A stretch of 58,855 nucleotides of DNA from a virus (taxonomy: Duplodnaviria; Caudoviricetes): the IMG/VR virus record IMGVR_UViG_3300036915_000009, positions 1 to 58,855 of that record; one strand, given 5' to 3'. Both the position numbers and the translations under genes were made by a program. Below the pieces are notes generated by a model, which did no database searches, had not been told where the DNA came from, and was given only the letters and a program-made list of their open reading frames with translations. Shown piece after piece: positions 1,017 to 44,957 of this stretch (the first letter of the stretch is position 1; every line of letters begins with the position of its first letter).

Positions 1017-2174
1017 ATGAGTGACCAAGACATGACGACATCAGCGAAGAACCACTTCGAGGGGGCTTGCATCGACACCGGCGTCAGCAGCCGGGAGCGA
1101 ACCAGCTGGCTCATAGCGCGCCGCGCCGGCATCGGTGGCAGCGACGCCGCCACCATCATGGGGGCGAACCCATTCTCCAGCGAGCTGGCTCTATACGTGG
1201 ACAAGACCAGCGACGATCCGCAGCCTAAGGACGACGCCGGAGAGCCCGCGCAGTGGGGCAACATTTTCGAGCCTGCGATCATCCGCGAATACAATGCTCG
1301 ATCGAAGCGCCGCGTGGTGACCGGCGGGCGCATCCTGCAGAGCCGCAAAGCGCCCCACTACCTCGTGACGCTGGACGGGGTGCAGCTCAGGCGAGCCCCA
1401 GCGTTCGCGCGTGGCAAGGGCCCTGGCGTGGCTGAGATCAAAACGACCGGCTATGGCGAGCGCTACGAGGAGGACATCCCGGTAGAAGTCCAAATCCAAT
1501 GCCAATGGGAAATGTTCGTTACGGGCGCCGCCTGGGCCACCTGTGTCTGGCTCCCCTTCCCCGAGCGAAAGCTGCAGTGGCGCGACATCGAACCACACCC
1601 GGAGTTCCAGGCGCTGCTCGCCGAACGGGTGGATGCCTTCTGGCAGCGCGTGGTCAAACGCAACCCGCCCGATCCGGATGGCAGCGCGGCGAGCAAGCTC
1701 GCGATCCGGCGGATGTTCCCGGAAGACAATGGCGAGGTGATTCGCCTCCTGGGCGCCGTCGATGCGGCTGACGAATACGAGCGATGTGCAGCCGCGATCA
1801 AGCTGCTGCAGAGCCGCCAGGCCGAGATCAAGAACATGCTGGCCTACACCATCGGGGAGGCGAAATATGCGGTGCTGGACGATGGCCGTTACTTCGGCTC
1901 TGCCACCTACAAGGCTCGGGAAGTGAAGTGCCCGGAGTGTGACCACCTGCTGAGCCAGCGCGAGGGGTACCGCACCCATACCCTGCGCAAGCCGAAGAAG
2001 AAGCCCTTCCAGGTGTTCGACGGCGAGCGCATGCTGCAAATGCCGCCGGCCAACGATGACCTGCTGGAACAGCTGGAGGCATCGAACAACTACCTGGATC
2101 CGAAGCTTCTGGCCAAGGACATCCAGAGCGCGAACGAAACGGCGGCGGAGATCAAGACCGGAACCGAGTCATGA
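1017..2174 (+). CDS. YqaJ-like (lambda exonuclease family) recombination nuclease
   Basis: WLIARRAGIGGSDAATIMGANPF, WGNIFEP, TLDG, EIKT, QCQWEMFVTG motifs. Confidence 0.9.
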   Translation: MSDQDMTTSAKNHFEGACIDTGVSSRERTSWLIARRAGIGGSDAATIMGANPFSSELALYVDKTSDDPQPKDDAGEPAQWGNIFEPAIIREYNARSKRRVVTGGRILQSRKAPHYLVTLDGVQLRRAPAFARGKGPGVAEIKTTGYGERYEEDIPVEVQIQCQWEMFVTGAAWATCVWLPFPERKLQWRDIEPHPEFQALLAERVDAFWQRVVKRNPPDPDGSAASKLAIRRMFPEDNGEVIRLLGAVDAADEYERCAAAIKLLQSRQAEIKNMLAYTIGEAKYAVLDDGRYFGSATYKAREVKCPECDHLLSQREGYRTHTLRKPKKKPFQVFDGERMLQMPPANDDLLEQLEASNNYLDPKLLAKDIQSANETAAEIKTGTES

Positions 2175-2294
2175 GGCGCTGGGTAGCCAACCCCATAGAG
2201 CTTCACTGATCAGGAGATGGCGCGGGCGCTCCGTTACGGCGGGGGCGCTCGCGCTTGGTCGTTTTCTTCGCCGCAAATTGAGGGAGAGCAAGCC

Positions 2295-2837
2295 ATGGGC
2301 AAGATGCCTGTTCAGAAGCCCGGCAAGAGCCGTCAGGACTACCAGACCCCGCCGGAGTTCATCGAAGCCGTCCAGCGTCGGTTTGGAGCTCTGACCTGGG
2401 ATCTCGCCGCGAGCGCTGAGAACACGGTCGTGCCCGGTCGGTTTTTCTCTCGCGGTGGCATCGACGCCGCCAAAGCAGATTGGACGGACTATCTCGGTCC
2501 GCGCGATTTGTGCTGGCTCAACCCACCCTTCGGCGCCATCAGTCACGTCTGGGCGCCGTTGCTGAGCCACTGGTGCCCGCGCATCCCGGGCATGCGCGTG
2601 CTCTTCTTCGTTCCCGCCGCCATCGGTAGCGAGTGGTATCGTGCTCATGTCCACGGCCGCGCCATGACGCTGGGGCTCGGGCCGCGCGTCACCTTCGTGG
2701 GCGAGGTGCACCCCTACCCGAAGGATCTGATGCTGTGCGCCTTCGGCTTCGGCGTGGCTGGCTTCGACCTGTGGCGGTGGCAAGCGAAGCGCGAGCGCTC
2801 AGCGCCCATCGTCACCGCTGGCGCAGAAGTGGCTTAA
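2295..2837 (+). CDS. Phage DNA N6-adenine methyltransferase
   Basis: YQTPPEF, WDLAASAEN and catalytic LNPPF motif; GGAG RBS before ATG 2295. Confidence 0.8.
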   Translation: MGKMPVQKPGKSRQDYQTPPEFIEAVQRRFGALTWDLAASAENTVVPGRFFSRGGIDAAKADWTDYLGPRDLCWLNPPFGAISHVWAPLLSHWCPRIPGMRVLFFVPAAIGSEWYRAHVHGRAMTLGLGPRVTFVGEVHPYPKDLMLCAFGFGVAGFDLWRWQAKRERSAPIVTAGAEVA

Positions 2838-3010
2838 TTATGCACCCGTTCGGGACGACGTGGCGGTTTGTGCGCCCGTCGCTTCCGGCTCTGGGGTAGA
2901 GTTTCGACCACCCCGGGGGAATCAAACCGGAAGAAGCCAAGACCACACCACGCACCCCGGGGGGCTCCTGCGCCTTGGCTCTTCACCCAACCGACAGAAG
3001 GACAGAACCC

Positions 3011-4171
3011 ATGGAAGCAGCAGAAGACCTCTTCGACGGCTCCGCCGTCATCGAAACGCCGGGCGGGCTCGCCGCGATCAGCCGCAGCGAAGTGGAGATG
3101 CAAGTCGACACCGCCCACAAGTATCCGCGCAGCATCACCAAGTGCCTGCGGGACGCGCTGACGCTGGCCACCTACTCGCCGGACGTGGCCAGGGGGTGCT
3201 GGTATTCGGTCCCCCGCAAGGAACAGGGTCGAAAGAAAATGATCGAAGGCCCATCGATCCGTCTGGCCGAGATGATCGCAAACAGCTGGTCTAATATGCA
3301 CATCGCCGCCCGCGTGGCCCACGTGGACGATCGCTCGCTGACCGCGCAGGCGCTGGTCTGGGATCTAGAGCGTAACGTGAAGGTGGCGATCGAAACCCCG
3401 CGCAGCATCATGACCAGCGGCGGCAAGCGTTTCGGGGACAATATGATCCAGGTCACTGGTGCCGCTGCCATCTCGATTGCCATGCGCAATGCGATCTTCC
3501 GCGTGGTGCCACGGGTGTTCGTCGATCAGATCATGGGCGAGGCGCGCAAGGTCGCAGTGGGTGATGCCAAGACGATCGTTGCCAAGCGCGATACAATGCT
3601 CAGCTGGTTCACGCAAGCCGGCGTTCCCATCGAGCGCGTGCTGGCGCCGCTCGGCGTCCGCGAGATCGGGGACGTATCGATCGACCACCTCGCAACGCTC
3701 ATCGGTATGCGCAACGCCATCAAGGAAGGAACGGCGACGCTTGACGAGATGTTCCCCGACCCGCAAGCGGCGCGGTCGTCCGCTCCCCCCGTCAGCGCCG
3801 GCAACGCGCTGAGCGCCCTGGTGGCGCAGGACAAGGAAGCCAAGAAGAAGGCAGCCGAGCCGAAGGCAGAAGTCGAGAAGCCCGCCGAGCCAGCGCCAGC
3901 GCCTGAGCAGCCCAAGCCCCCTGCCCCGCTCGCCACCATCGAGGTCCAGGCGGCGCTCGTCCGAATCGATGAGCAATGGGGCACCGAGGCCGGCCACTTT
4001 CTCATCGAGCAATGGACCGACGAACAGCGCGCAGCGGCCGTTGCCTGGGCGGAAGCGTCGAACGATGGCGAGCCCCCCCCCGCCTTCATGGTGCAGAACG
4101 AAGAGCAGAAAGCGCCGCCAGCGGACAAGGCCGAGAAGAAGTCCTCGAGCCGCAAGCGGGGTGGACGATGA
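3011..4171 (+). CDS. Putative single-strand annealing/recombination protein
   Basis: KYPR...IEGPSIRLAE...WDLERN N-terminal domain, Pro/Ala/Glu-rich tail; same operon as the exonuclease; function inferred from context. Confidence 0.5.
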   Translation: MEAAEDLFDGSAVIETPGGLAAISRSEVEMQVDTAHKYPRSITKCLRDALTLATYSPDVARGCWYSVPRKEQGRKKMIEGPSIRLAEMIANSWSNMHIAARVAHVDDRSLTAQALVWDLERNVKVAIETPRSIMTSGGKRFGDNMIQVTGAAAISIAMRNAIFRVVPRVFVDQIMGEARKVAVGDAKTIVAKRDTMLSWFTQAGVPIERVLAPLGVREIGDVSIDHLATLIGMRNAIKEGTATLDEMFPDPQAARSSAPPVSAGNALSALVAQDKEAKKKAAEPKAEVEKPAEPAPAPEQPKPPAPLATIEVQAALVRIDEQWGTEAGHFLIEQWTDEQRAAAVAWAEASNDGEPPPAFMVQNEEQKAPPADKAEKKSSSRKRGGR

Positions 4172-4850: not shown

Positions 4851-5728
4851 AGCTCGTAACTCATGACCACTGTGCTGATGGGTTGGCTTGCGCCATGCTG
4901 GCGCTGGACTCGTTCCGCGCCGCCGAGGTCACGTTCGTGGACTACGGTTCGCCCGAGCACGCAAACTTGCCCGCCGAGCCCGGAATGGTGTTCGCTGATA
5001 TGACCCCGCCACGCGAGCGCGTCCAGGAGTTCGTGGACGCGGGCGCCACCGTGCTCGATCATCACGCATACGCGAAGGACATCGTCGAGCAGTTCGGCTC
5101 GCGTGGCATCTACTCCGACGAGCCCGGCGTCAGCGGCGCGGTGCTATTCGCTCGCTACGGTTGGAATGGACCCTCGCTCTACGGTCATCGGTTCGCGGCG
5201 CTCGTCGGCATTCGCGACACCTGGCAGAAGGATCACGACGCTTGGGAGCGCGCCCGACAGTTGCATGCGGTGCTGATGCAGCTGCCTCGGGACTACTGGT
5301 GCGGTCACTCCGACGGCATCGACCACGCGATGACCCTGAGCATGGCGCTGGGAGCGTGTCTGCTGAAGGAGCGTAAGGCGAAGGTCGACAAGGCGCTGCG
5401 CCACCTGATGCGCGAGAGCATCACGATTGCAGACGGCAAGTCGCTGAAGTGGGGTGTGTTCTCCGATCCAGACAACCTGATCAGTGACGTGGCCGAGCAT
5501 GCTCGGCAGACGACGGATCTGGATGTCGTTATCGGCTGGCGCTCTGTCATGGTCGACGGCGAGTTCGTGGATAAGTTCTCGCTCCGCAGCACCAACTACG
5601 ACGTGGGCGCTCTGGCTCGCCATTTCGGTGGCGGCGGACACAAGGCGGCGGCCGGCTTCACCGCGCCTTGCGCGCAAGACCCTGTGGCGATGAGCTGGCT
5701 TATCATCAGAGAGTTGATCATCAAATGA
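4847..5728 (+). CDS. DHH/DHHA1 family phosphoesterase
   Basis: HDHCADG, FADM, LDHH, FSLRS and GGGGHKAAAGF motifs. Confidence 0.9.
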   Translation: MKLVTHDHCADGLACAMLALDSFRAAEVTFVDYGSPEHANLPAEPGMVFADMTPPRERVQEFVDAGATVLDHHAYAKDIVEQFGSRGIYSDEPGVSGAVLFARYGWNGPSLYGHRFAALVGIRDTWQKDHDAWERARQLHAVLMQLPRDYWCGHSDGIDHAMTLSMALGACLLKERKAKVDKALRHLMRESITIADGKSLKWGVFSDPDNLISDVAEHARQTTDLDVVIGWRSVMVDGEFVDKFSLRSTNYDVGALARHFGGGGHKAAAGFTAPCAQDPVAMSWLIIRELIIK

Positions 5729-6189
5729 CGCCGGGATGGATCTTCACTTTCGGCTTCGGTCATGTCCACCCGCTCACCGGCGAGAACTTGATCGGTCGTT
5801 TCGTCCGCATCGGTGGCACGGAGACACAGGCACATACCGCCATGTGCGTTCTGTTTGGGCAGAAGTGGGCAGGACGTTACAAGGACGAGGAAGCGGCCGG
5901 CGTCCACGAGTATGGCCTGAGGGAATTACCGATCGATGACCTCGCCGAGCATCTTCTCCAGGGCGCTCGCACCGCGATCGCCTATCTACTCCATGCCAGC
6001 GCAAAGCACCGCTTCGCCGAAACGCACCCAGAGTGGCGACGGCTCGCAACGGGGTGGCTGGACGTGGAAAGCGTCACGTTCGTGGGCGAGCCCGGCAAGC
6101 TCGGTCAGATGGTGCTCGCTCTGCTGGACGAGGTCGAGCAGCTGCGCGGCGAGGTCGATCGTTTTTCACGTGAAAAGGATCCGAGGTGA
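5725..6189 (+). CDS. Hypothetical phage protein
   Basis: ATGA-coupled; WIFTFGFGHVHP. Confidence 0.65.
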   Translation: MTPGWIFTFGFGHVHPLTGENLIGRFVRIGGTETQAHTAMCVLFGQKWAGRYKDEEAAGVHEYGLRELPIDDLAEHLLQGARTAIAYLLHASAKHRFAETHPEWRRLATGWLDVESVTFVGEPGKLGQMVLALLDEVEQLRGEVDRFSREKDPR

Positions 6190-6410
6190 AGACCAAGGCC
6201 AGGGTGGGTGATCTCGTCCAGTGCCTGATGGGATCCTTCATGCGGGACGTCATCTTCCATGTGACGGCAGTCCGGCGCGAAGAAGTGGTGGGCTTACGTC
6301 TGTTGCCGCGCCTGCAGCAGTCAGTCGAGGCGCGGCTGCCCCATGGGTGTTACCGGAACATCTCGCGGCTCGGAGAGATCGACCTTCAGTGGCTCCGCAA
6401 AAGGGGCTGA
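6186..6410 (+). CDS. Hypothetical protein
   Basis: GTGA-coupled short ORF. Confidence 0.5.
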   Translation: MKTKARVGDLVQCLMGSFMRDVIFHVTAVRREEVVGLRLLPRLQQSVEARLPHGCYRNISRLGEIDLQWLRKRG

Positions 6411-6456
6411 GTTAACGTTTCTCAAGTCGCCCGGGGAGTGGTCGATCTCTCCGGGC

Positions 6457-7134
6457 ATGACCGCCAAGACCACCAAGACCCGTTTTGGGGCGCTGCTCGT
6501 CGCCCTGTCCTCGTTCGCCTGTGGCGCGATCGCGCATGAGCCCGACGAGAGCGCCCCAGACGACCCGCTCGCCACATCCGCCCCGAGAACGGTCGCCAGC
6601 GACGCCAGGAACGCGCCTCCCGTCGTTTCGGCTCCGTTGACGCACACTGATGCGTCCGGGGAAGAAACGACGCCAGAGCGCGAGCCTGAGACCCCGCCCG
6701 ATAGTGTCGATCCGACACAATCCGATGACGCCGAGTCAGTCGACCCTCCCGCGACCGACCCAGAGCCAGAGCCACGGATCGAGTCCTGCGGCTACGAGGA
6801 GCAGTGTGACGATTGCGAGGCGCGAGCAGACAACGACCCCACCCTGGTGTGTGAGTTGCTCCCGCAGTGTGTGAGCCGTTCCGATTGCGACGCTTGCGCC
6901 GCTGCTTCGATGGAGGCCGGGACGTACCCAGAGCTTCGGTGCGTGTATTATTGGTGCGACACGGACGCCGATTGCGCCGAAGGGCTGGAGTGCCTGGAGG
7001 TGACGGCGGGCGGTCGGCTGCACTGCCGTGAACCGCTGCGCGGGTATCGTTCGCGCTGTGAGACGGACGCCGATTGTGACCGCGGGTGGTATTGCACCTA
7101 CGACGCCACGACCGGGCTGGACGTCTGCCTGTAA
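6457..7134 (+). CDS. Cys-rich lipoprotein
   Basis: Signal peptide with lipobox-like LSSFAC, acidic Pro-rich linker, repeated CxTDADC modules. Confidence 0.7.
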   Translation: MTAKTTKTRFGALLVALSSFACGAIAHEPDESAPDDPLATSAPRTVASDARNAPPVVSAPLTHTDASGEETTPEREPETPPDSVDPTQSDDAESVDPPATDPEPEPRIESCGYEEQCDDCEARADNDPTLVCELLPQCVSRSDCDACAAASMEAGTYPELRCVYYWCDTDADCAEGLECLEVTAGGRLHCREPLRGYRSRCETDADCDRGWYCTYDATTGLDVCL

Positions 7135-7142
7135 ACAGCGAA

Positions 7143-7182
7143 ACGGCACCGCGCCTCTAATTGGGAGTGCAAGCGGTGCCGT
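7143..7182. terminator. Stem-loop at the convergence of the + and - operons
   Basis: ACGGCACCGC...GCGGTGCCGT 10-bp inverted repeat just after the lipoprotein stop. Confidence 0.45.
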
Positions 7183-7331
7183 CTATGCGCTAGTGTTGAA
7201 GCCCCGAGTCCGTCGAGACGGGCCGCGGGGCTGCGCGGGTTTTGAATCAATTGGTCTTGGTTTTCCCCGCGTGGCCCTTCGACCCCTCTCAACGGACTCG
7301 CTTCGTTTTGTGGGGTGCCCCGCGGGGGGTG

Positions 7332-7375
7332 TGTTTCACGTGTTACGTTCCACGTGCAACGTAACACGTGAAACG
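7332..7375. promoter_or_regulatory. Three overlapping parS-like sites forming a 42-bp near-perfect palindrome
   Basis: TGTTTCACGTGTTACG, CGTTCCACGTGCAACG, CGTAACACGTGAAACG at 14-bp period; compare bacterial parS TGTTTCACGTGAAACA. Confidence 0.65.
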
Positions 7376-7391
7376 TTGCACGCTGGCGGTT

Positions 7392-7622
7392 TCACGACTC
7401 GGCGCCTTCGATCTGGTCGGCCATGCCGCGCAGTAGCGAAGGCAAGTGGAGGTTAGTCACCGGGCGAGCCGCGACCGAGAAGCCGCCGCCCCGGACGCCT
7501 CCGATCACGATGACGAGCACGGCCACCGCATCCTCGCGCTTCAGCAGCTGCTCGCAATCGGGGCCAAACTTGCCACCACCGGGTTGAGCCGCGCCAAGCG
7601 GTCTGTTGCTCTGGTCGCTCAT
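7392..7622 (-). CDS. Hypothetical protein
   Basis: 76-aa ORF coupled to the upstream gene. Confidence 0.55.
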   Translation of the reverse strand: MSDQSNRPLGAAQPGGGKFGPDCEQLLKREDAVAVLVIVIGGVRGGGFSVAARPVTNLHLPSLLRGMADQIEGAES

Positions 7623-7921
7623 GCTGATCTCGAATAGGTGGCGGCGAGGACCTCCGCGCTGAACTGGTCGAACGTCAGCGGACGGCGACCCGCAAGAGCC
7701 GAGTGGTTGGCGCAGAGTACCTGCTGGCCATCAGTGAAGGAGTGCCAGCGCAGCATCCGCGGGTGACTGACCGGGCACACCGCGCAACGCTCTCCAGCCA
7801 CCAGCGAGCCACGGCACTTGCGGACACGGCACCCGGTGCAGACGTTGCCCTTCCCGATGGGGGTGGAGCAGAGTTCGCACTTCTTGGATTCTGTGATCTT
7901 GGTTTCCATAAGTGCACCCAT
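7619..7921 (-). CDS. Zinc-finger protein
   Basis: CELC, CTGC, CAVC, CANH motifs. Confidence 0.6.
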   Translation of the reverse strand: MGALMETKITESKKCELCSTPIGKGNVCTGCRVRKCRGSLVAGERCAVCPVSHPRMLRWHSFTDGQQVLCANHSALAGRRPLTFDQFSAEVLAATYSRSA

Positions 7922-7957
7922 GGCAAGTTTTCTGCCGTTGGGCTAGTTTTCCGATCC

Positions 7958-8413
7958 ATGACCGCCTCCGTGCCGCCTGCTGGCTCGACTCCCGCGTCCG
8001 CCTACTCTCTGACGGTGACCCAGCCCCAAGAGCCGCCGCCGGCCATCTTGGCCGATCCCATCGGCATCGACGGCGAGTGGACCGATCTGCTGACCAGCGC
8101 CTCGATCGCCGATGGCATGGCGCGCGAAGCGATGGCCATCGAACGAGCCACGGGCGCGGCGGTGCGGGATCTCGGTCAGCGCTTCCGCTTCCTCAGCCAC
8201 GTGGACGACCAGAGCGATGAGGTGCTGGAGACGATGGCGCGCGAGGCATTCCGGCCTGCGGTGGAGGCCGGAGTGCTCTCACTAGAGCGAGTCTATTCGG
8301 AGGTCGATCCGAGTGACGGCACGCAACTCAATGCGGTGGTCGAATATCGCGATCTGCTCGCGCCGCCATCGGCTGCGTCCCGGCGCATCGAGTTCCCGCT
8401 GGGCACCACGTAA
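7958..8413 (+). CDS. Putative baseplate wedge protein (Mu gp46 / gpW-gp25-like), displaced
   Basis: 151 aa; GAAVRDLGQRF...AREAFRPAVEAGVL...VVEYRDL pattern; no other gp46 candidate in the baseplate cluster. Confidence 0.5.
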   Translation: MTASVPPAGSTPASAYSLTVTQPQEPPPAILADPIGIDGEWTDLLTSASIADGMAREAMAIERATGAAVRDLGQRFRFLSHVDDQSDEVLETMAREAFRPAVEAGVLSLERVYSEVDPSDGTQLNAVVEYRDLLAPPSAASRRIEFPLGTT

Positions 8414-8956
8414 CAAGCGCAGGGTTAGCGCCGCTCGCCGCTCGCCCTCGGGCGATGGGGCACATCGATGACCGCTCGTGTATGCGGTGTGGACTGCAGA
8501 CAACAAGGGACGACCGCGAGCGGTGCCAACGCGTCGAGCGCATAGGCGGCGGGCGGCGACCAGACTGGCGACACCAGCGTCCGCACACAGGCGCGTGGCC
8601 TCCGGATCCACACCAGCCAAGGCCCTCCAACCGGTGGCAGCGAACGCGTCGGGATTGCCACGGTTGATTTGCATGAAGCAGATCGAACGGCCCCGATCGC
8701 CAAGGCGCTCACCGGAGTGCACCCCACGATCGAGCCCACCGCTTTCGCGCGCCGCCGTCGCGGCCACTGCGGCCGCCCACAAGCGTCGTTCGTGACCGGG
8801 CAGATTGCCGGTCATGACGGCCACGTTGATGGCATCGGCGAGCGCTGAAGCCATCACCTCGATCCGCTGTGCTCGGGCTGCCTCAGGCTCGCTCGATCCG
8901 TATGGCGGCGGTACCATCAGCAGCGCTGCCAGGATCCAATGGGCGAGGGGAGTCAT
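8282..8956 (-). CDS. Putative lysozyme-like / lytic transglycosylase
   Basis: N-terminal hydrophobic segment; ARES...GRSICFMQIN...AYTSG resembles SLT motifs; follows holin and endolysin; 3' end overlaps the + gene. Confidence 0.5.
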   Translation of the reverse strand: MTPLAHWILAALLMVPPPYGSSEPEAARAQRIEVMASALADAINVAVMTGNLPGHERRLWAAAVAATAARESGGLDRGVHSGERLGDRGRSICFMQINRGNPDAFAATGWRALAGVDPEATRLCADAGVASLVAARRLCARRVGTARGRPLLSAVHTAYTSGHRCAPSPEGERRAALTLRLLRGAQRELDAPGRSRWRREQIAIFDHRIELRAVTRIDLRIDSL

Positions 8957-9071
8957 CGGTTCCACCGCATCGGAAACTGGAACACCTTCGCCCACGGTTG
9001 CAACTCTGGCGCCTCGCTCCGCTTCTCGTCCGTCACAGGCTCCTCGTGCGCTACGCGACCGAGCCCAACGA

Positions 9072-9374
9072 TCACTTCCGCGAGCTTCCGCGCAGCTCGG
9101 TTAGCGTCGCGCTCAACGTGCTCTCTAACCATGCGAACATACTTTTTACGGTTGAGGCGTGAACGACCATGAAGCGTTCTTCCCTCTTTGACTGCTCTAG
9201 CAAATTGGATTCGGTGCTTCGGAGCAAGCGCTCTGAGAGTTGCGAGTTCCTCTCCCTCAAGTCCGCGTTCAGCTTCCGCAAGCTCCAGATCCAAAGGGCC
9301 ATCACTACAAGCGCCCCATAGGGCCCGAGCACGAGCCCGATCCATTGCTCTAGCGATAGATCGGCGGAGGGCAT
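9072..9374 (-). CDS. Holin-like membrane protein
   Basis: N-terminal TM segment plus coiled coil; immediately after the endolysin. Confidence 0.5.
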   Translation of the reverse strand: MPSADLSLEQWIGLVLGPYGALVVMALWIWSLRKLNADLRERNSQLSERLLRSTESNLLEQSKREERFMVVHASTVKSMFAWLESTLSATLTELRGSSRK

Positions 9375-9380
9375 GAAGCT

Positions 9381-10190
9381 TCATGCTAGCATCCTTGTTT
9401 GTTGCACGATGCGATCGAGGTAGGAAGCCATCGGGAACTTTGAGCCGGGGTCGGTGTGGGTGCTTTTCCCCCACGCCTTGGTTACGTCCCAATGGGTCGT
9501 AATGCCCCACGCCCCATAGTAGATCTTAGTGGCGTCCACATAGCGGATCGGGATCCGGAAGCGTGAACAGAGCTGCGCCGAGAGCTGCGCCGAGAGATCG
9601 AGCATTCGCTGCGAAAATGGATCCTCCCACTGCGCCGAGCTCTGGCGAGAATAGCCGGCATGTTCAAGGCCGATTCCAACACGATTGGCACCCGGTGCGT
9701 GCCACGCGATCCGATCGGGAGGAACGCACGAGATCACCGTCCGATCGTCAATGCAGTAGTGGGCGCTAGCGCGCGGAGGTGGGCCCTTCTGCCCAGCGAA
9801 CCAGCGAGAGCAACTTTCTGCCGTCGTGGAAGCCTCCGGCGCTTCCATGACGTGGATCACGATCAGCCGCTTTTCTTGCGGACCGACCCAACGCGTCCAG
9901 TTCGCCGCCTCGATGTACGGCAGTGATCGGTGATCCTCTAGCGGCTCGATGACGACGCTGATCGGGGGCGCATCGATCATGGCGATCGTCTTAGGTCCGA
10001 CGATCCCATCTGGATCGAGTCCTCGCTCGGCTTGCCACGCGATCGTGAAGTTGTGCGTCTGCCCGCCGAACACCCCATCGACGAGGACCGGATACTCATC
10101 GCCTTCGAGCACCTCTTGCCAGCTGTAGACATCGTCGCCCGTGTCACCCTTGTGCAAGCGTGCTCGCCACTTGGTGTGATGGAGCTTCAT
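9381..10190 (-). CDS. Endolysin: peptidoglycan-binding domain plus N-acetylmuramoyl-L-alanine amidase
   Basis: DGVFGGQT...WQAERGLDPDGIVGPKT; IVIH, SAHY, AWHA, IGLE, H..DPG amidase motifs. Confidence 0.9.
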   Translation of the reverse strand: MKLHHTKWRARLHKGDTGDDVYSWQEVLEGDEYPVLVDGVFGGQTHNFTIAWQAERGLDPDGIVGPKTIAMIDAPPISVVIEPLEDHRSLPYIEAANWTRWVGPQEKRLIVIHVMEAPEASTTAESCSRWFAGQKGPPPRASAHYCIDDRTVISCVPPDRIAWHAPGANRVGIGLEHAGYSRQSSAQWEDPFSQRMLDLSAQLSAQLCSRFRIPIRYVDATKIYYGAWGITTHWDVTKAWGKSTHTDPGSKFPMASYLDRIVQQTRMLA

Positions 10191-10431
10191 GGCTCCTAAG
10201 GGTGCCAACCACTGGCGCGGATAGCAAAGGGAGAACCGGGAGCGCCGCCCCTAGGAACCAACGTCCACCATCCGTCGAGAGCACACCCTAACCAGGCGCG
10301 GAAAAGATGAGCTAACGAGCAGAACTGGAATCAATTCCGAGAGCAATGCCTCCCGGACTCCCTTCAAGCGTTCAAGGTACCGAGCGCGGTCCTGGCTCTC
10401 AAGCGATCGGCCGATCGGTGGTGCGCTTTGC

Positions 10432-10443
10432 GATCCATGGATC
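10432..10443. promoter_or_regulatory. Palindrome GATCCATGGATC, copy 2
   Basis: Extends to GCGATCCATGGATCGC; upstream of the lysis genes. Confidence 0.6.
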
Positions 10444-10447
10444 GCTT

Positions 10448-11224
10448 TTAGGTCCCGATCTCGAAGGGACCGTCGGGCAGTATATCGCCGGGAACAAAGT
10501 TGCTTCCGGTCGCATCGTTGCCGTCGCTACCGTGGTCGGTGATCGTTGTGAGCGAGTCGGTGTTGTCGAGCTTGAGCCATTTGTCGGGGGCGGGGGCCGT
10601 GGCTAGGTTGTTCAAATCAGGCGGAGCGCCGTTGTTGTAAACCTCGCCAACGTGCGTCGCGGTCAGCTCGCTTGTCCACATTGCCGCGTGGGCAAAGCGA
10701 GCCGTCGCTCTATTCGCTAGATCGCTGTAACCAGGGCGCCCGATGTACCAAGGCTCGCTTCCGATCAGGCTTGCTGGAGAGTCGTCAACGAGGACGCCGG
10801 TCGTTTTCTGGACGGCGTTGCGAAAGAAGCTGAAGTTTGCCGCCGTCGACCCGCTCGCCTTCGTGACTACGATATTGATCCATTCGTCGACGCCGACGAT
10901 CGGGCGGCAATCGGCATGTGCGATCTGTTTGTCGCCGCTTCTTTCGATCCAAACTGCACATTGTTCTGTAGGCGAAAGAGGGATCCCCGTGAAGCTCGCC
11001 GGAGTGGCAAGCTCTAGCGTGATGCCGAGGAAAGAACCGCTCATTTTCGAGAACGAGAGCGAACCGACGTCATCGAGGTTCTTGACCCAGATCGACCACG
11101 TGAAAGCATCACCATGATCGAAGTCGAGCACGTCACCCAAATTGATGGCTTGCGAGTTCGCGAAGCGGAAGCTGTAGCCTCGGGGTGGTCGCACACACCG
11201 GCCTTCGAATACGCCGAAGCTCAT
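10448..11224 (-). CDS. LamG/concanavalin A-like virion protein (receptor-binding candidate)
   Basis: AFTWSIWVK, EWINIVVT, AMWTSELTATHVGEVYN. Confidence 0.7.
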   Translation of the reverse strand: MSFGVFEGRCVRPPRGYSFRFANSQAINLGDVLDFDHGDAFTWSIWVKNLDDVGSLSFSKMSGSFLGITLELATPASFTGIPLSPTEQCAVWIERSGDKQIAHADCRPIVGVDEWINIVVTKASGSTAANFSFFRNAVQKTTGVLVDDSPASLIGSEPWYIGRPGYSDLANRATARFAHAAMWTSELTATHVGEVYNNGAPPDLNNLATAPAPDKWLKLDNTDSLTTITDHGSDGNDATGSNFVPGDILPDGPFEIGT

Positions 11225-12120
11225 GACGGGATCGGCTTTCGTGAATACCCTATGTAGCGGGCGAAGCTGACGGTGTTTGCGGACTGGTTGTCGATCTCGA
11301 CGGTCACATCGTTGCCGGAGACATCGACGGTGACCGAGTAATTGCCCCCGATCGGCTCCTCCACTGGCGCCTGCGCTGGCTGGTAGTGGATGACCGCCCC
11401 GCCACCGTCGCGATACGCCTCCACCTGCTGGCGGTAGGTGTAATACTCGACGGCCGTGGGGTCCTTGATCGTGACCTCCACCGTGATGGTGTACCAGTAG
11501 CCGTCTTCCAGTGTGAGAGCGACACTGTCCTGGGTGGAGGTCGCCATGTCGTCCCGATCGAAAGCGGTCGGGAGCACCAGCAACTCATAGCCATCACCCA
11601 GCTGGTAGGTGCTCTGCCCAGCCACATCGGCTAGGTCACTCAGCGCGCCAGCCCAGCCGTCAACTTCAAACTGGGCGACTTCGGTGCACACGATCTTGCG
11701 CGTGCTCAGCCCCGTGGGGATGTAAATTCCGCGTTCGTGAATGAGCGTCGGATCGGCAACCGCGGTGCCGTTCGGAAGCTGACGGACGCCGCCATTGACC
11801 ACGCACCGCAGGATCCAGGAGTGAACTCCGCTCGATGGCAGTGTGATCTGGACGGTTCCGTCGACCGTGGCGGGCGAAACCGTCTGCCCGTTCGTCGCGC
11901 CCACGATCGTCAGCTCCGGCGCGCCCTTGCTCGCCCGTGGCGGGTTGGCCGCAATGCCCAGATCAGGATCGAAGCCATCAGCATCGAACACCTGGAAGGC
12001 AACCGAGTTGACGCCCACCGGAGGCGAAGCGCGCAGCCCGATCGTCAGGACTTCGCTATTGGTGGCTGAATAGCCACGGTCGCCGCCGTCGGCGTTGATG
12101 TCGAATAGTGGGCTGGGCAC
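11221..12120 (-). CDS. Putative tail-associated structural protein
   Basis: Beta-rich 299 aa in the tail-fibre cluster; GGAGG RBS. Confidence 0.55.
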   Translation of the reverse strand: MPSPLFDINADGGDRGYSATNSEVLTIGLRASPPVGVNSVAFQVFDADGFDPDLGIAANPPRASKGAPELTIVGATNGQTVSPATVDGTVQITLPSSGVHSWILRCVVNGGVRQLPNGTAVADPTLIHERGIYIPTGLSTRKIVCTEVAQFEVDGWAGALSDLADVAGQSTYQLGDGYELLVLPTAFDRDDMATSTQDSVALTLEDGYWYTITVEVTIKDPTAVEYYTYRQQVEAYRDGGGAVIHYQPAQAPVEEPIGGNYSVTVDVSGNDVTVEIDNQSANTVSFARYIGYSRKPIPS

Positions 12121-12174
12121 GCGATCCTCCGCTGGTGAAAAACCCGCGCCCGGCTTTCGCGGTTCAGCCTACCA

Positions 12175-12519
12175 TCAGGCGCGCGTTCGGTCGCCGGCAA
12201 TGTCCAACGTCAGCGAGCCAAACCATTGGTTGTGAAATTGCTCGGCGAGGCGCACGAGGTGCGAGCCCCCTTCACGGGGCAGGAACGTAAGCCCGGACGG
12301 CTGAAAGCGCCGGAACACGGTGCGAGTCACCTGCTCGCCGCTCGGCCCGGTTACTGTGAATTCCAGCGGCAAGACCACGCCCTCGGGCAACGTGGCGGAG
12401 TAGTCGACCGAGATCAGCACTGGCGTGAAGGTCTGCAGCAACTGATCGCTATCGGTCAGAGTGACGCGGATCCGATCCTCGCCATAGTAGCTCGGCGAGA
12501 TCTCATCGAGGAAGCTCAT
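12175..12519 (-). CDS. Hypothetical Ig-like structural protein
   Basis: ATGA-coupled; FTVTGPSG...FLPREGGSHLVRL. Confidence 0.55.
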   Translation of the reverse strand: MSFLDEISPSYYGEDRIRVTLTDSDQLLQTFTPVLISVDYSATLPEGVVLPLEFTVTGPSGEQVTRTVFRRFQPSGLTFLPREGGSHLVRLAEQFHNQWFGSLTLDIAGDRTRA

Positions 12520-12896
12520 GGGTCCACCACATCCAGGTGCATGAAGACTCGGCCATGGTTGGGGCGCGCGAGCACGATCGTGTAATGACCGGCAGCTGTA
12601 GGCGTGAAGGTTTGCACGCTGGACTGACCAGCGGCGCCCGTGAACACCGGGATCGTCGTGAAAGGCCACTCCACCGGCGTCGCAGTGAACAGCTCTCCGC
12701 CTAGGTTCGAGTCCACCTCACCCGCTACGCCATCGACTGATGCCGTCACAGTGATGGGCGTGCCCGTCGTGCCCACGCGGCGACGGTGAGGCAGGTTCGC
12801 CGCGGTGTTGGTGCGATCCGGCTTACTCGCGGTGGCCGGATCACTCCAGACGGCGGAGGTCACTCCCGAGGTGAATGCAACGGTAAAGTCAGCCAT
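12516..12896 (-). CDS. Hypothetical Ig-like structural protein
   Basis: Beta-rich; QTFTPTAAGHYTIVL. Confidence 0.55.
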   Translation of the reverse strand: MADFTVAFTSGVTSAVWSDPATASKPDRTNTAANLPHRRRVGTTGTPITVTASVDGVAGEVDSNLGGELFTATPVEWPFTTIPVFTGAAGQSSVQTFTPTAAGHYTIVLARPNHGRVFMHLDVVDP

Positions 12897-12912
12897 GGCG
12901 GCGCCGGCCCCT

Positions 12913-13197
12913 TCAGTCCTGTGCTACGTCCGGATCTTCCTCGTCGCGTTGCACGGTCAACGCCCCGAAGGCCTCCCGAGTGGCGCGGAGATCGTCGATC
13001 TTTTCCTGGCACTTCACCCGCTCCGCTTCCAGTGCCGCCACATGCTTGCTCAGCTTCGCGATTTGGCGATCGAGGGTTTGGATGTCCAGCAGCTGCACCG
13101 AGGTCCCGAGCGTCACCACCGCGTGCCGGCTACCAATGCGCCGCAGCTTCGGGGGGATGTGATCGCCGACGCGGGCAAGCTTCTTCTTCGTGGCCAT
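12913..13197 (-). CDS. Coiled-coil hypothetical protein
   Basis: Heptad pattern; in operon. Confidence 0.55.
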   Translation of the reverse strand: MATKKKLARVGDHIPPKLRRIGSRHAVVTLGTSVQLLDIQTLDRQIAKLSKHVAALEAERVKCQEKIDDLRATREAFGALTVQRDEEDPDVAQD

Positions 13198-13200
13198 GGT

Positions 13201-14229
13201 CTACAGAACCTCCTGTGTTTGACGCATCCGATTGCGCCGATAGGTCACCGACACCGAGAGAACGTCCAGCTGATCGTCGAACGAATCCGTTCCCGACTCG
13301 CCAATGATGCGGATCTTGATCCGATGACCGCTGACGATGGTGTGTGAGAGCGAGCCGACCGTGATGTCGTGCGCCGCATCATAGGCGGCTTGGCTTGCTG
13401 GCGCGTCCGTCGTGGATCCGAGCGCGCTGGAGGTGCCCGTGCTCTGGGTGATGTCGTCCACGAACACCTGCGGCGGAAACTCTGGGATGTCGGAGTGGGT
13501 GCCACCAGCAACTCTCACGGTTACGCTCTCCAGCACATCGCCAGGGCTCAGGCGAATCGGCATTGAGAGCTGCTTCGCTATGCTGGTGTCGGAGTTGACC
13601 CAGCGGAGGCCAGACATCACCCAACCAACCGTTGCCGAGCTGCCCGCCTGCGTTGCGACGCCGTCCTCGAGTGGCACGTATCCGGTGCGAACGCTCGGCA
13701 CATCGATCTGAATGGTTTCCTGCTCGCCGATCAGGAAGGTGGCGGTCGATTTTACGTCCAGCGTTGCCGTCGAGAGTAGGCTGGTGGTCGTTCCGGCCCC
13801 GAGTTGCAAAGCACCTGTGGCGCCTTGTTCGAGCAGAAAGGTGGCGCCGTTCTCGATCGTCAGATCACTGCCGAGTTCGAAAAGCACGGCTCCGCCATCT
13901 TCGACGGTTACCAATCCACCGCTTCCGACGGCGGCATCCCCGTCGATCGTCAGCAGGCCGCCTGCCTCCACCAGCAACTCTGCAGTGGACTCGATGACGA
14001 GGTTTGCGGTGCCGAGCACGGTCAGCTCGCCGCCGGCAACGATGTCGATATCATCGCTGTCCAGGCGGACATCGTCGCCCGTGAAGATGAGCGGAGCGCT
14101 CAGGCTGTAGGTGCCGCCTGCAGCACCATCAACGGCCTTGAGTAGCTCGGTTTGCAGATGGGTGACCTGGGTTGAGGTCAGGAGATCCTGCAGCGCCCAG
14201 CCGCCGCTTTTCGCTGCTGTCAGTGTCAT
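13201..14229 (-). CDS. Putative tail fibre / baseplate-attached protein
   Basis: Follows the gp48-like gene; LTV/LTI-GG beta-helix-like repeats then a beta-sandwich-like C-terminus. Confidence 0.55.
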   Translation of the reverse strand: MTLTAAKSGGWALQDLLTSTQVTHLQTELLKAVDGAAGGTYSLSAPLIFTGDDVRLDSDDIDIVAGGELTVLGTANLVIESTAELLVEAGGLLTIDGDAAVGSGGLVTVEDGGAVLFELGSDLTIENGATFLLEQGATGALQLGAGTTTSLLSTATLDVKSTATFLIGEQETIQIDVPSVRTGYVPLEDGVATQAGSSATVGWVMSGLRWVNSDTSIAKQLSMPIRLSPGDVLESVTVRVAGGTHSDIPEFPPQVFVDDITQSTGTSSALGSTTDAPASQAAYDAAHDITVGSLSHTIVSGHRIKIRIIGESGTDSFDDQLDVLSVSVTYRRNRMRQTQEVL

Positions 14230-14239
14230 CGTTCGATCC

Positions 14240-14947
14240 TCATGATCCGAAGCTCGTTAGGTCCAGCAGGTCGACGTCCAGCACGAAGCCGACGCTGGTG
14301 GTGGTGCCGAAGCGTTCCCAGGCTGGGAGCATATCACCGAGCAGCTTGTTCGCGGCGATCAACGCTTTCTTGTCCGCTGTGCTCGGCGCCACGCCCGCGC
14401 CAATGTCCAGCAGGACGAACCAAATGTAATCTTGGGCGTAGTTGGGCAGACGGCTCGACTTGCGCCCGCCTCCGAACGGCTCGCTCGCTGTGTAGTCCTC
14501 GAATGCTCGACCGGGATGGGTGGTGTCGGTCTTGGCTCGGTTGATGGTCAGTACCGCGAAACGCGGATCGATGCGCTGGAGCTCCGCCTCCACGTTGGGC
14601 ACGGTGGCCTCGGGGTTGCGCCGATAGCGCCGGGCAATCGTGGCTCGGCGCTCCTCGGTACTGTCGGCGGGGCTGCTCGTGGTCAGAAACAGCCGCTCAT
14701 AGTAATTGAGCAGGTCGGTCGCCAGCGACGGGAACACCTGCAGCACCGCGCGCTCGCCGAACGTGCTCGCTGCGCCGATGCCGACGGCTTTCGCTTGGCG
14801 CCACAAGCCGTCGACGGTGTTGTCTTCATTGTCGGCGGCGCCCCCTTTGCCCGCGTTCGCGCGCAACGCGAGGTAGACGGTCTCGATGGCCGTCTCGCCG
14901 CCACCGAACTCGATGGGAAAGGGGTTATGCCAGCCGAACCCGCCCAT
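14240..14947 (-). CDS. Baseplate wedge protein (Mu gp48-like)
   Basis: FPSLATDLLNYYERLF...EERRATI...LPAW; position after baseplate J. Confidence 0.65.
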   Translation of the reverse strand: MGGFGWHNPFPIEFGGGETAIETVYLALRANAGKGGAADNEDNTVDGLWRQAKAVGIGAASTFGERAVLQVFPSLATDLLNYYERLFLTTSSPADSTEERRATIARRYRRNPEATVPNVEAELQRIDPRFAVLTINRAKTDTTHPGRAFEDYTASEPFGGGRKSSRLPNYAQDYIWFVLLDIGAGVAPSTADKKALIAANKLLGDMLPAWERFGTTTSVGFVLDVDLLDLTSFGS

Positions 14948-14950
14948 GCA

Positions 14951-15451
14951 TCAGCCGATCCAGATGGCGACGTCGTTGCCGTCTTCCAGCGCGTCCGATG
15001 CATCGAACACGCAAACCTTCACGCCGTTGGCGGTGCCGGACAGCGGCGTCACCATGACCGACTTGCGTACCGCAAGGCTGGGCGTCACCACGACGCCAAA
15101 GCCCCACGAGAAGCTGAGCGCCACCGAGTTGCCGTCCTTGTCCGTCACCGGCGTGGTGTATTCCACATCGTAGTTCCCCGTGGCCTGTTTGGTCAGGCTC
15201 GGATCGTTGAAGGGTGAAGCAGTCAAGCCGGAGGGGTTCCACGCTTCGGCGCGCGAGATGACCGCGGGCGAGGTGTCGGCACTGAAGCTCAGAAACGCCA
15301 GCGGCGTCACGACGCCCAAGCCGGCGAGCTGAAACTTCATGAGATTGAACCGCGCCGCCGAAAGTGCTCTCGACGGGTCGCGAACCGGGTACACGTCCAC
15401 CGCATCGGGGCCGAGAGCGGCAAGGTCTGGACGGTTCGGGAAGCTAGTCAT
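14951..15451 (-). CDS. Hypothetical baseplate-region protein
   Basis: ORF between baseplate genes. Confidence 0.55.
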   Translation of the reverse strand: MTSFPNRPDLAALGPDAVDVYPVRDPSRALSAARFNLMKFQLAGLGVVTPLAFLSFSADTSPAVISRAEAWNPSGLTASPFNDPSLTKQATGNYDVEYTTPVTDKDGNSVALSFSWGFGVVVTPSLAVRKSVMVTPLSGTANGVKVCVFDASDALEDGNDVAIWIG

Positions 15452-15465
15452 GCGGGGGGCGCCTT

Positions 15466-17043
15466 TCAGAAGGGATACACAGCAAACTTACCCGCCACGA
15501 GCAGGCTCGGGCCATCGACGGGATCGGTGGGTAGAGTCGGCTCGGAAGTGCTGACGCTCGCCAGCGTGACATCGGTCAGAGCGGAGCCGAGAGCATCGGA
15601 AAGGAAGCTCGTGACCCCTTGCCCCGCCCGCGAGGGGTATTCCTCCGACGGCACCGGATTGCGGAACGCGCGCGAGCCGAGTTCGCTGCTGTCAAGATCC
15701 ACCACTTCACCCGGGCCAAGCGAATCGAAGTAAGCTGACACTGCCTCGTCCACGAGAGTACGGCGCGACATCTCGGGCGATACATAATCCCCGACGGTAA
15801 GGGTCTTGGATGGCGCGGTGCCGAGCAGCACGCGATAGATGCCGCCGCCAAGATCCTCCACTGAGGTCACGTCCAGCGCGACGAACTGGCTGACGGCGTC
15901 GTCCCATACCATCAGCGATACTCCAGCGAGCGGACCCGAAACGGCGCCAGGGAGCTGCCCAGCCGCTCCGGTGGTGATCCGGATGTCCTGCTGAGTGGTG
16001 ACGGTCGTGATCTGGATCGCCGCGGTGCCGTTGATGGGAGGGAAGGGGGTGGCATCCGCCCAGCCAGCGGTGGATCCGAACGCTTGATCGAGCTGCAGCA
16101 CCATGTTCGTGCTCTCGGCAACTGGAGGCACCACCACGACCAACACATGACCCGGGAACAGCGCCGAGCCCGGCGGCACGATGAAGCTGACCACCGCCTG
16201 CAGCGTCGAAAGCCCCGGGATGCGTGCATTGGGGCCAGTGCCGCTGCCTCGCTTGGCGGTGATGGCAACCAGGACGCTGCCAGCATTCAACGCGCAGGGG
16301 TAGACGAACGCATCCTCCACCGAGTTCGCGGCCGCCCGAGCGAACCCGCGGATGTGACTCCAGTTGCCGCTGGCTGGCTTGTGACGGATGCGAGCGGACA
16401 AGCGCGGGGCGAAGTCGGCATCTGTCTCGGCATCGATGCCGCCTTGCATGTCCGCCGTAACGGTCGCAGTGGGCGCGCTGCCCGTCGGGGGGTTAACCCA
16501 TGTGATGACCGCATCCGCCGAAAGGTTCGTCGCGTCGCCACCGTCGAGCGCAACGATTGCCACAGTGGCCTCACCGTTGGCGTCCGCCGTTGCGCTGACC
16601 ACCACCTGATAGCGATTCCCCGCGCTATCGGTGCCGACCGTGGCCAATGGATCGGGAAGCGATGTGGAGCCTTGCCACACGGTGCCCGCGTTGCCTGTTG
16701 CCGCGACGGTACCGCTCGCGCCGAAGGCGGGTAGGTACTCCTCGCCCCAGAAGCTCGCGTGATAGTTGCGAAGGAAGGCCGAGCCAGCTCGATCGATCCG
16801 CAGCTGCTGGGCCAGAAATTCATCGCGCTTCTGAGTGCCGAGCAGCGCAATATCGATGGCTTCCGCTTCGCGATAGAAGCGACTCCCTCTAGCCGTTGAT
16901 CTTCGGATCGTGTCTTCAGTGAACGGCGCGCCTGTGTTCAGATCGTCGAGCAGGCGCAGACCCTCACGATGTTCGCGCAGGATGATCTCGCGAACCTCGC
17001 CGCGACGATAGACAACAAACTCGCGCTCGGCCGGCGTCGTCAT
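15466..17043 (-). CDS. Baseplate J-like protein (Mu gp47)
   Basis: ASGTVAATG...GGIDAETDADF..RL..RIRHKPASGN...AFVYP...GSVLV. Confidence 0.85.
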   Translation of the reverse strand: MTTPAEREFVVYRRGEVREIILREHREGLRLLDDLNTGAPFTEDTIRRSTARGSRFYREAEAIDIALLGTQKRDEFLAQQLRIDRAGSAFLRNYHASFWGEEYLPAFGASGTVAATGNAGTVWQGSTSLPDPLATVGTDSAGNRYQVVVSATADANGEATVAIVALDGGDATNLSADAVITWVNPPTGSAPTATVTADMQGGIDAETDADFAPRLSARIRHKPASGNWSHIRGFARAAANSVEDAFVYPCALNAGSVLVAITAKRGSGTGPNARIPGLSTLQAVVSFIVPPGSALFPGHVLVVVVPPVAESTNMVLQLDQAFGSTAGWADATPFPPINGTAAIQITTVTTQQDIRITTGAAGQLPGAVSGPLAGVSLMVWDDAVSQFVALDVTSVEDLGGGIYRVLLGTAPSKTLTVGDYVSPEMSRRTLVDEAVSAYFDSLGPGEVVDLDSSELGSRAFRNPVPSEEYPSRAGQGVTSFLSDALGSALTDVTLASVSTSEPTLPTDPVDGPSLLVAGKFAVYPF

Positions 17044-44087: not shown

Positions 44088-44665
44088 CAGCCCACCCACG
44101 GTTTGCAGGTGAGACCATCGGCCTCGAGCCGTTCCATCACCTCGCTCTGGTGGTCCTCGTCGCGGCACTCCACGATGACCGAAAACGAGAGCCCCGAGCC
44201 AAGTGCTTGCCTGGACTCCTTGGGCCAAGGCGCGAACATCAGCGATTTGATCTCCTTTTCCTGAAAGCCGGCGGTCATCCAATCGTTTGGGTCCAGCTCG
44301 CCCAGCCCCACCACCTCGCCGAGCTTGCCAGCGTCCCACTTGCTCTTTTCGCCGAGCTTGTTGTCAGCGACGGCGAGCGCATGCGCTTTCTTCGCCGGCA
44401 AGGACACCCAGCGGACCGGCACCTTGTCCTCGCCCAGACGTTCGGCGGCGAGTAGCGCGGTGTGGCCGACGATGATCTCGCCCTCCAGACCCTTGTGACG
44501 GTTTGCAATGATGGGGCGTCCCCACCCAAACCGTTTGATCGACTCGGCGACGAGCGCGATCGACTCCTCATTGTCTCGCGGGTTCAGAGCCCAGGGCTTC
44601 AGCGATGAACGCTTGACCCATTGGAACTCTTCTTCACTACCCGCGGCACTAGTCCGCTTGGGCAT
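44087..44665 (-). CDS. ParB N-terminal (Srx-like) domain protein
   Basis: LKPWALNPR...SIKRFGWGRPII...IIVGH...ADNKL; no C-terminal HTH. Confidence 0.85.
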   Translation of the reverse strand: MPKRTSAAGSEEEFQWVKRSSLKPWALNPRDNEESIALVAESIKRFGWGRPIIANRHKGLEGEIIVGHTALLAAERLGEDKVPVRWVSLPAKKAHALAVADNKLGEKSKWDAGKLGEVVGLGELDPNDWMTAGFQEKEIKSLMFAPWPKESRQALGSGLSFSVIVECRDEDHQSEVMERLEADGLTCKPWVG

Positions 44666-44957
44666 TGATCTCGGTCTCCTTTTTTCGTCCCGCGCCTGGG
44701 CTCGTTTCGTTCCCATCGTACACAGCGAGGGTCGACCCGTCCACGAGAACGCGAGCCAGGGGGACGAGGGCGGGCGAGGTGACGCCCGCGCGCGGGGGGC
44801 TAGATAGTCACTCGCGGGCGGGCGCGGGGCGTTCCTCGCGCATCCTCGCGGGTCTATGCGCGAGGGGTGTTTCAGCCCCGAACAGAGCCGTTTTTCCGCT
44901 GTTTTATGCGGTTTGCGCGTTGCGCCCCCTTGGGCCTCCGTAAGACTGTAAAGGGTG

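Follow-up and report, generated by a model that had tools for sequence, protein, structure and literature searches.

In the window, as we call the whole 58,855-bp stretch of phage DNA that was analysed, an array of parS-like words lies between the ends of a plus-strand gene for a Cys-rich protein (g6343) and a minus-strand ORFan (g7392), that is, at the 3' ends of genes and not at a promoter (Table 1). Most of the array forms one palindrome, the arms of which (7333-7353 and 7354-7374) are 95% complementary, and which was the sole palindrome in a window-wide scan for arms of at least 14 with at most one mismatch. CACGTG starts at 7337, 7351 and 7365, and ACGT occurs six times at exact 7-bp steps (7338-7373), against totals of 12 CACGTG and 158 ACGT in the 58,855 bp. 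TRF reports 7333-7382 as 3.6 copies of a repeat of period 14 with 77% matches. Seven consecutive heptads (7333-7381) read GT..CAC or its complement and vary only at their two middle positions; the GT..CAC positions that are kept are those which we take to carry the specificity of parS.

The preliminary description of this locus had reported a 42-bp palindrome with one mismatched pair and CACGTG at a 14-bp period, and both observations are confirmed, as is the presence of the further parS-like palindrome that it had listed upstream, which lies 10 bp before the GTG start of a small gene (6186-6410). Its view of the three repeats as three separate sites is not supported. The single 14-mers are not palindromic by themselves, unit 1 being the exact reverse complement of unit 3, so that the symmetry belongs to the 42-mer and not to its units; nor does the array end with the palindrome, since it continues in decaying form to 7395, where the last half-site overlaps the stop codon of g7392. 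With a G at 7357, both the core of unit 2 and the 42-bp palindrome would presumably be perfect. Between 6300 and 8500 the window shows 0 differences from an independent Logan assembly of its probable source run, which was the one DNA sequencing run listed as containing this phage; no RNA run was listed. The exact array pattern had no match among the 2.9 million viral contigs of IMG/VR, and three CACGTG at 14 bp were found there in three other contigs only, none of them parS-like.

Table 1. Coordinates of the array, its units and the other features discussed, in window positions.
Feature	Position	Strand	Remarks
Separate parS-like palindrome	6163-6176		TTTTCACGTGAAAA; 2 mismatches to the 14-bp core
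g6343	6343-7134	+	Cys-rich protein with a 102-bp internal repeat
Structured non-coding stretch	7135-7330		Hairpins 7143-7182, 7205-7300 and 7311-7327
42-bp palindrome	7333-7374		One mismatched pair (7350/7357); 48% G+C in a 63% G+C genome
Unit 1	7333-7346		GTTTCACGTGTTAC; left half-site perfect, right half with 2 differences; reverse complement of unit 3
Unit 2	7347-7360		GTTCCACGTGCAAC; its 16-mer spans 7346-7361
Unit 3	7361-7374		GTAACACGTGAAAC; right half-site perfect
Decaying array continuation	7375-7395	+	Half-sites GTTGCAC (7375-7381) and GTTTCAC (7389-7395)
g7392	7392-7622	-	76-aa ORFan, ends at the array
g7619	7619-7921	-	Cys-rich protein of ~100 aa
Decayed promoter-proximal parS-like site	7924-7939	+	CAAGTTTTC...; TAGTTT at 7944-7949, 8 nt before the ATG at 7958
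Slot gene	7958-8413	+	Homolog of the gene directly preceding baseplate J in relatives
ParB N-terminal-domain protein	44087-45082	-	Near the terminase genes; below the Pfam cut-off, without the ParB HTH

The window corresponds to an entire IMG/VR virus record (63% G+C), which is classed as 'linear' and has a CheckV completeness estimate of 97%. PHROG and Pfam matches identify a contractile-tailed phage with sheath, tape measure, baseplate J, large terminase, amidase endolysin and portal proteins; the plus-strand early arm encodes a RecE-like exonuclease, Dam and a DHH phosphoesterase, while the genes for DnaB and a methyltransferase occupy the far end. Megablast and blastn found no DNA-level relative among cultured phages, the large terminase (TerL) is at most 28% identical to those of cultured phages, and the sheath was matched by five records only. 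The phage is an uncultured myovirus of about 59 kb, the host of which is probably a member of the Myxococcota. Single-protein searches of IMG/VR loci with g6343, TerL and g7392 recovered no relatives, the endolysin as query recovered two unrelated phages only, and no tRNA was found in the window. As a separate observation, a single 972-aa ORF (35524-38442) fuses the portal protein to a Mu-F-like minor head domain.

Against the general parS consensus, the 16-bp palindrome TGTTTCACGTGAAACA, the window contains two matches at up to three mismatches (6162 and 7332), where 0.17 were expected and 1 of 100 shuffles reached two, and four window sites match the 14-bp core with two mismatches each; in relatives, parS-like sites with one mismatch are present. 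No window site comes within 2 of 16 mismatches of the general consensus, which is a limit in use for calling parS (PMC10197239), and this argues against the array units being bound by a ParB of the host. The comparison with Myxococcus points the other way. The M. xanthus chromosome carries 22 parS within 3 kb, with the consensus TGTTCCACGTGGAACG and demonstrated ParB binding (PMC3899335), and the 16-mer of the central unit differs from that consensus at 2 of 16 positions, being identical at the other 14 with the 3' G included. Both clusters are thus dense sets of imperfect parS copies; the M. xanthus cluster, however, is chromosomal, adjoins parAB and consists of spaced sites with proven binding, whereas the units of the array abut and would be candidate sites. 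A further likeness is to P. aeruginosa, where ParB binds half-parS heptamers (PMC10419367): GTTCCAC and GTTTCAC heptamers occur there as they do in the array and its extension, even though the P. aeruginosa half-sites are scattered over a chromosome of another phylum.

The genes that meet at the array are poorly represented elsewhere. For g7392 no sequence homolog was found in a set of 5.8 billion proteins, and its Atlas matches are unnamed small viral proteins only. Homologs of g7619 occur only in the window phage and in the relatives L018 (6679-6924), L082 (1198-1464) and L086 (1074-1319), and are absent from the genomes G002-G005; its structural look-alikes, weak ones (TM 0.5-0.58) from a low-confidence model, are HNH/endonuclease VII nucleases and hypothetical proteins of Myxococcota. 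These two genes form a small, separate minus-strand unit. The array had been placed at the convergence of the two transcription arms, which is correct locally, as g6343 runs into this two-gene unit, and incorrect for the late operon, which meets the plus strand near 8400-8950. The homologs of g6343 in L086 (221-889) and L082 (311-991) begin with a lipoprotein-like signal peptide, and the L086 gene is preceded, at about 45 bp, by a parS-like word.

The gap between g6343 and the array is itself strongly structured (z of -8.1 and -9.7 for the folding of 7135-7330). In an alignment with L082 and L086 this stretch is common to all three, and a 12-nt block (7250-7261) is invariant in the window and in the corresponding stretches of L082 (990-1200) and L086 (900-1035), while the array and g7392 are found in the window only. 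Because it is absent from two close relatives, the element composed of array and ORFan turns over quickly, and the same absence counts against a role in loading host ParB. The structured stretch, a neighbour of the partition slot, could be an RNA element, comparable to the RNA-based origins described near parABS in mycobacteriophage prophages (PMC7157519); the 12-nt block could instead begin a 50-aa minus-strand ORF that runs from 7250 down to 7098. Rfam gave one sub-threshold match, to mir-431 (23.7 bits against a gathering score of 70), which we dismissed as a chance match to a hairpin.

Given this setting, the palindrome may be a hairpin and nothing else, acting either as an RNA stem-loop that ends, pauses or stabilises the transcripts of g7392 and of the plus-strand arm, or as a DNA cruciform, with its likeness to parS incidental. 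It lies between the ends of two facing genes in a gap that is structured throughout, its RNA stem is predicted at -28 to -33 kcal/mol on either strand and its DNA fold at -21.6 kcal/mol (z -3.7). In addition, the substitutions of unit 1 mirror those of unit 3, which keeps the 42-bp dyad intact and not three independent sites; a hairpin or cruciform would be expected to look like this, as would one inverted duplication, and the symmetry weighs against host ParB. Even so, we consider a hairpin without further function distinctly unlikely. The features of a Rho-independent terminator are not found here, the stem having 48% G+C and no T run (U tract) on either strand, and a terminator scan returned the hairpins at 7223 and 7306 in place of the palindrome. 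L082 and L086 lack the array yet keep the neighbouring hairpins by the g7619 stop codon, the single 14-mers of relatives sit at promoters and in genes where a long hairpin does not form, and a hairpin has no need of a 7-bp ACGT periodicity or of the half-sites at 7375 and 7389.

Relatives of the phage were found by way of baseplate J, whose homologs, with 55-69% identity, number over 200 and lie on contigs roughly 60-66 kb long; profile searches gave 51 loci in IMG/VR, 10 in GTDB genomes and 9 in metagenomes. Fourteen of these ~60-kb uncultured myoviruses form a subclade in which the slot gene (46-60% identity between the window and five relatives) heads an operon adjoining the early arm: the window phage, L018, L004, L005, L008, L010, L082-L087, L089 and L090. 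Just upstream of the slot gene, 9 of the 14 carry a divergently transcribed gene for a small Walker-A ATPase followed by a ribbon-helix-helix (RHH) gene. The ATPase matches AAA_31 and CbiA, and over its full length the structures of ParF and ParA; the pair is a type Ib (ParF/ParG-type) plasmid-partition cassette. In the window phage, L018, L082 and L086 the slot holds g7619 instead of ParA, and L083 has neither.

The preliminary description had suggested looking for the sites in related phages and had named their absence there as a refutation. That refutation fails, as 9 of the 14 members, window included, have between one and six parS-like sites in this slot, ahead of the slot gene. With no more than one mismatch and with Y/R allowed at the two variable positions, the 14-mer occurs in the 200 bp that precede the slot gene at 7 of 43 distinct loci, and the reversed motif at 0 of 43 (a slot-gene match of E ≤1e-3 was required, and the duplicates L017, L029, L072, L076 and L088 were dropped). 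All seven positives belong to the subclade, namely six of its nine ParA-bearing members and L086, which has two copies in a 47-bp direct repeat. In L018, the closest relative by baseplate J (68%), six copies of GTTTCACGTG lie within 1.8 kb of the slot (reversed control 0), both in and between small genes; gene duplication as their origin was rejected, since the small proteins are unrelated. No site was found in L004, L087, L090, L082 and L083, some of which are short contigs, and this patchy distribution is a point against host ParB. Among five complete and more distant relatives, four are without GTTYCACGTG and one has a single site elsewhere. One parS-like core with one mismatch was also seen in each of the more distant relatives L074 (15040) and L011/L072 (15165), in the tail-fibre region and not in the slot, and one of this set lies inside a 235-kb Myxococcota MAG contig. 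In the six-site slot of the closest relative (G001 (L055), 1604-3862) the accessory genes are unrelated to one another; by our reading of the translations, the product of one is HicB-like and that of another is a lipoprotein in which an HExxH motif occurs.

The cassettes of the relatives recall the type Ib ParF/ParG system of TP228, with a small ParF-like ATPase, an RHH protein and repeated boxes upstream; the window differs in lacking both genes, and the RHH boxes are sequences other than the parS-like word. The RHH proteins fall into two beta-strand types, each with its own box repeated upstream of parA, GGGAC in L005 and L010 and CGTGCA in L004, L008 and L090, a clean co-variation of protein and site. 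The parS-like site occurs unchanged with both types and is therefore not the site of the RHH protein. RHH centromere sites of the heptad type are runs of 7-bp units. The array is such a run, it contains CGTGCA (7353) and TGCACG (7377), matching the box of L004, L008 and L090, and the RHH proteins of these three have one common beta-strand sequence, so that the array might be read as a relic or variant of a type Ib centromere or operator left by a lost ParF/ParG cassette. We regard this as highly improbable: the repeats of a type Ib centromere are present, but neither an RHH gene nor ParA was found in the window (a clade-specific RHH profile gave a best E of 1.1, and RHH_1 and ParG had no match up to E = 1), and in relatives the parS-like word is independent of the RHH type. 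Elsewhere in the subclade, the slot gene of L087 is separated from a divergent ParA (30% identity) by about 430 bp (5560-5990) filled with many short repeats of the GGGCTA/GCCCGG type, probably a large centromere array.

A regulatory function, which the preliminary description had not raised, is suggested by the position of the sites in relatives. A TAnnnT hexamer precedes the ATG of the slot gene by 5-9 nt in 11 of the 14 members, and no ribosome-binding site is evident, which suggests that the slot-gene transcripts are leaderless. In L005, L008, L010, L084, L086 and L089 the parS-like site lies 4-12 nt upstream of this predicted -10 hexamer, within the predicted core promoter; for L085 the corresponding distance is 20 nt, to a candidate hexamer that is weaker. 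Since the site is inside the core promoter of the slot gene, a protein bound to it would also affect the baseplate operon in these relatives. This placement is typical of operators and as such weighs against host ParB as a partition factor; it is the main support for the site being an operator of a non-ParB regulator, phage- or host-encoded, of the baseplate/late operon, the window array then being a displaced and multiplied copy, and it also supports a dual role for ParB. At this very position the window has a copy in decayed form, and the three multi-site phages (the window phage, L018 and L086) all encode the Cys-rich g7619. An operator of this kind is nevertheless unlikely in our view. No candidate binder is common to all site-bearing phages, g7619 itself having no counterpart in G002-G005 and its look-alikes, weak as they are, being nucleases and not regulators; site and hexamer are anywhere between 4 and 20 nt apart; the window array is at gene ends; and a motif equal to the near-universal chromosomal parS would be a strange one to meet in a regulator that has nothing to do with ParB.

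A ParB that could bind the sites would come from the host. Neither the window nor any of G001-G005 gave a match to HTH_ParB, and the ParB-N protein of the window is indeed, as had been said, without a DNA-binding HTH. The earlier claim that ParA, integrase and protelomerase are missing was likewise borne out, as ParA, RHH_1, ParG, resolvase, protelomerase and tyrosine integrase all had no match in the window; five complete relatives also have no tyrosine integrase, and four have no resolvase domain. Six of 10 matches to genomes fall in Myxococcota MAGs, three of these on contigs of 155-235 kb, and the remaining four in bins of other phyla, which may be mis-binned; the host would thus probably be myxococcotal, judging from MAG bins only. 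Myxococcota proteins are also the nearest of the weak structural look-alikes of g7619. Three of these Myxococcota MAGs have two perfect parS cores each, 1-2 kb apart (three of the six sites are canonical over all positions of the 16-mer), with a conserved aminotransferase gene flanked by the parS pair in two MAGs, and all three candidate-host MAGs encode a ParB (ParB_N above cut-off). An HTH ParB for the parS-like sites would accordingly be supplied by the candidate hosts and not by the phage. In a sample of 401 Myxococcota genomes the clade was seen in only two, both already-known matches, and this narrow basis for the host counts against the involvement of its ParB.

We propose, with a probability of about 0.4, that the array is a parS-like site at which host ParB is loaded onto an episomal phage genome. 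The clade apparently lives as non-integrating episomes, and most close relatives have their own ParF/ParG-type cassette at this position. The window phage, which has no gene for partition, integration or a ParB HTH, would instead have multiplied parS-like sites; clustered sites of the host type would load the host ParB-CTP clamp onto phage DNA, and the ParB-bound genome would be moved by host ParABS, with neighbouring promoters possibly damped. Three things we infer here, namely the binding of ParB, its service to inheritance and the episomal state of the window phage. The proposal draws on the motif being that of a near-universal centromere, on its enrichment in the clade, on the lack of a phage-encoded binder of known type, on the partition-cassette context and on the precedent of phi29 (PMC2731898). 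Use of host ParB by an episomal phage had already been put forward in the preliminary description, and that idea is partly supported, with the slot cassettes, the missing integrase and ParB HTH, the parS and ParB of the candidate host phylum and phi29 on its side. The role in segregation or in spores suggested there is at this point a hypothesis. The temperate state that it implies is unsupported, since no repressor was found among the PHROG- or Pfam-annotated genes of the window, and Pfam recognised neither a repressor nor a replication initiator in ten ORFs between 45 and 56 kb; the missing repressor is a further point against host ParB. Abutting sites 14 bp apart may also not be bound together, and relatives with a complete ParF/ParG system keep one site too, which argues against a pure substitute centromere.

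That phi29 carries host parS sites, as the preliminary description stated, is in print: it has five and uses the host Spo0J (ParB) (PMC2731898). Like phi29, the window phage combines several parS-like sites of the host type (four parS-like cores and two half-sites) with the lack of a ParB of its own. The two differ in other respects. phi29, a small podovirus with a Firmicute host and protein-primed, has its five sites dispersed, and they serve endospore entrapment; the sites described here abut or cluster in a single slot, and the ~59-kb myovirus that carries them, with a probable host among the Myxococcota, has relatives with plasmid-partition cassettes. The cluster A mycobacteriophages, which have extrachromosomal prophages, offer another parallel, their parABS occupying a fixed, exchangeable slot next to a non-coding element; they encode their own ParA and ParB and use an 8-bp direct-repeat parS unlike the chromosomal consensus (PMC7157519), while the window phage encodes neither protein. 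In full-text literature searches, the phi29 work was the only case to come up of a phage or phage-plasmid exploiting host ParB by way of chromosomal parS.

The array could finally be a by-product, without function, of slippage or of an inverted duplication of one ancestral site, maybe tied to rearrangements in the slot. With L082 and L086 as reference, the array and ORFan are an indel; nested inversions with breakpoints beside the slot gene occur in the clade, and one inverted duplication followed by one substitution would give the 42-mer. We find this very unlikely, because clusters arose independently in L018, where they are dispersed, and in L086, as a direct repeat, and because the positions presumed to bear specificity are kept in all seven heptads. 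The inversions themselves involve window positions 7958-17043 when compared with L004, L005, L008 and L010 and with L006 and L009. In the window, the block from baseplate J to the endolysin has the opposite orientation to that in L004, L005, L008 and L010, and only in the window is the slot gene apart from baseplate J. A search for inverted repeats flanking a possible invertible segment, between 7.3 and 17 kb, found none matching the array and none flanking the inversions.

Beyond loading of host ParB as such, the distribution of sites and cassettes raises a wider scheme, which we hold to be possible but doubtful. This clade of probable myxobacterial phage-plasmids would switch its mode of inheritance, some members keeping their own ParF/ParG cassette and others, the window phage among them, having lost it and multiplying copies of the host centromere, so as to be segregated by host ParABS; in relatives, through the single site kept within the promoter of the baseplate operon, host ParB would in addition repress late genes, and titration by rising numbers of phage copies would lift this repression. 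If host ParB does bind, the window phage would be a case of centromere mimicry by a tailed phage outside that of phi29, and would show a partition strategy without an annotatable gene, so that surveys of phage-plasmids based on ParA and ParB would miss such phages. The clade would then offer a natural series, from own cassette through single site and dispersed sites to abutting array, from which one could learn how mobile elements give up a segregation system of their own for a borrowed one, and whether ParB also regulates transcription on foreign DNA. With parS near-universal, the ParB of a cultured species would be usable for such work although the host is uncultured.

Two further sequence elements deserve mention. 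In ECF-type promoters a CGT is expected at a set spacing after the -35 element; a reading of TGAAAC/TGCAAC as an ECF-sigma -35 element was rejected by eye, there being no CGT at that spacing. The 11-mer ACCAAGACCAA occurs eight times in the window (865, 7251 on the minus strand, 20769, 20787, 45474, 45806, 46265 and 47598) against 0.012 expected, and is also present in L018, L082 and L086. In most cases this 11-mer follows AAAGGAA. Five of the eight copies directly adjoin a start codon and the other three lie 19-45 nt upstream of one, so that the 11-mer looks like a shared ribosome-binding leader of early or accessory genes.
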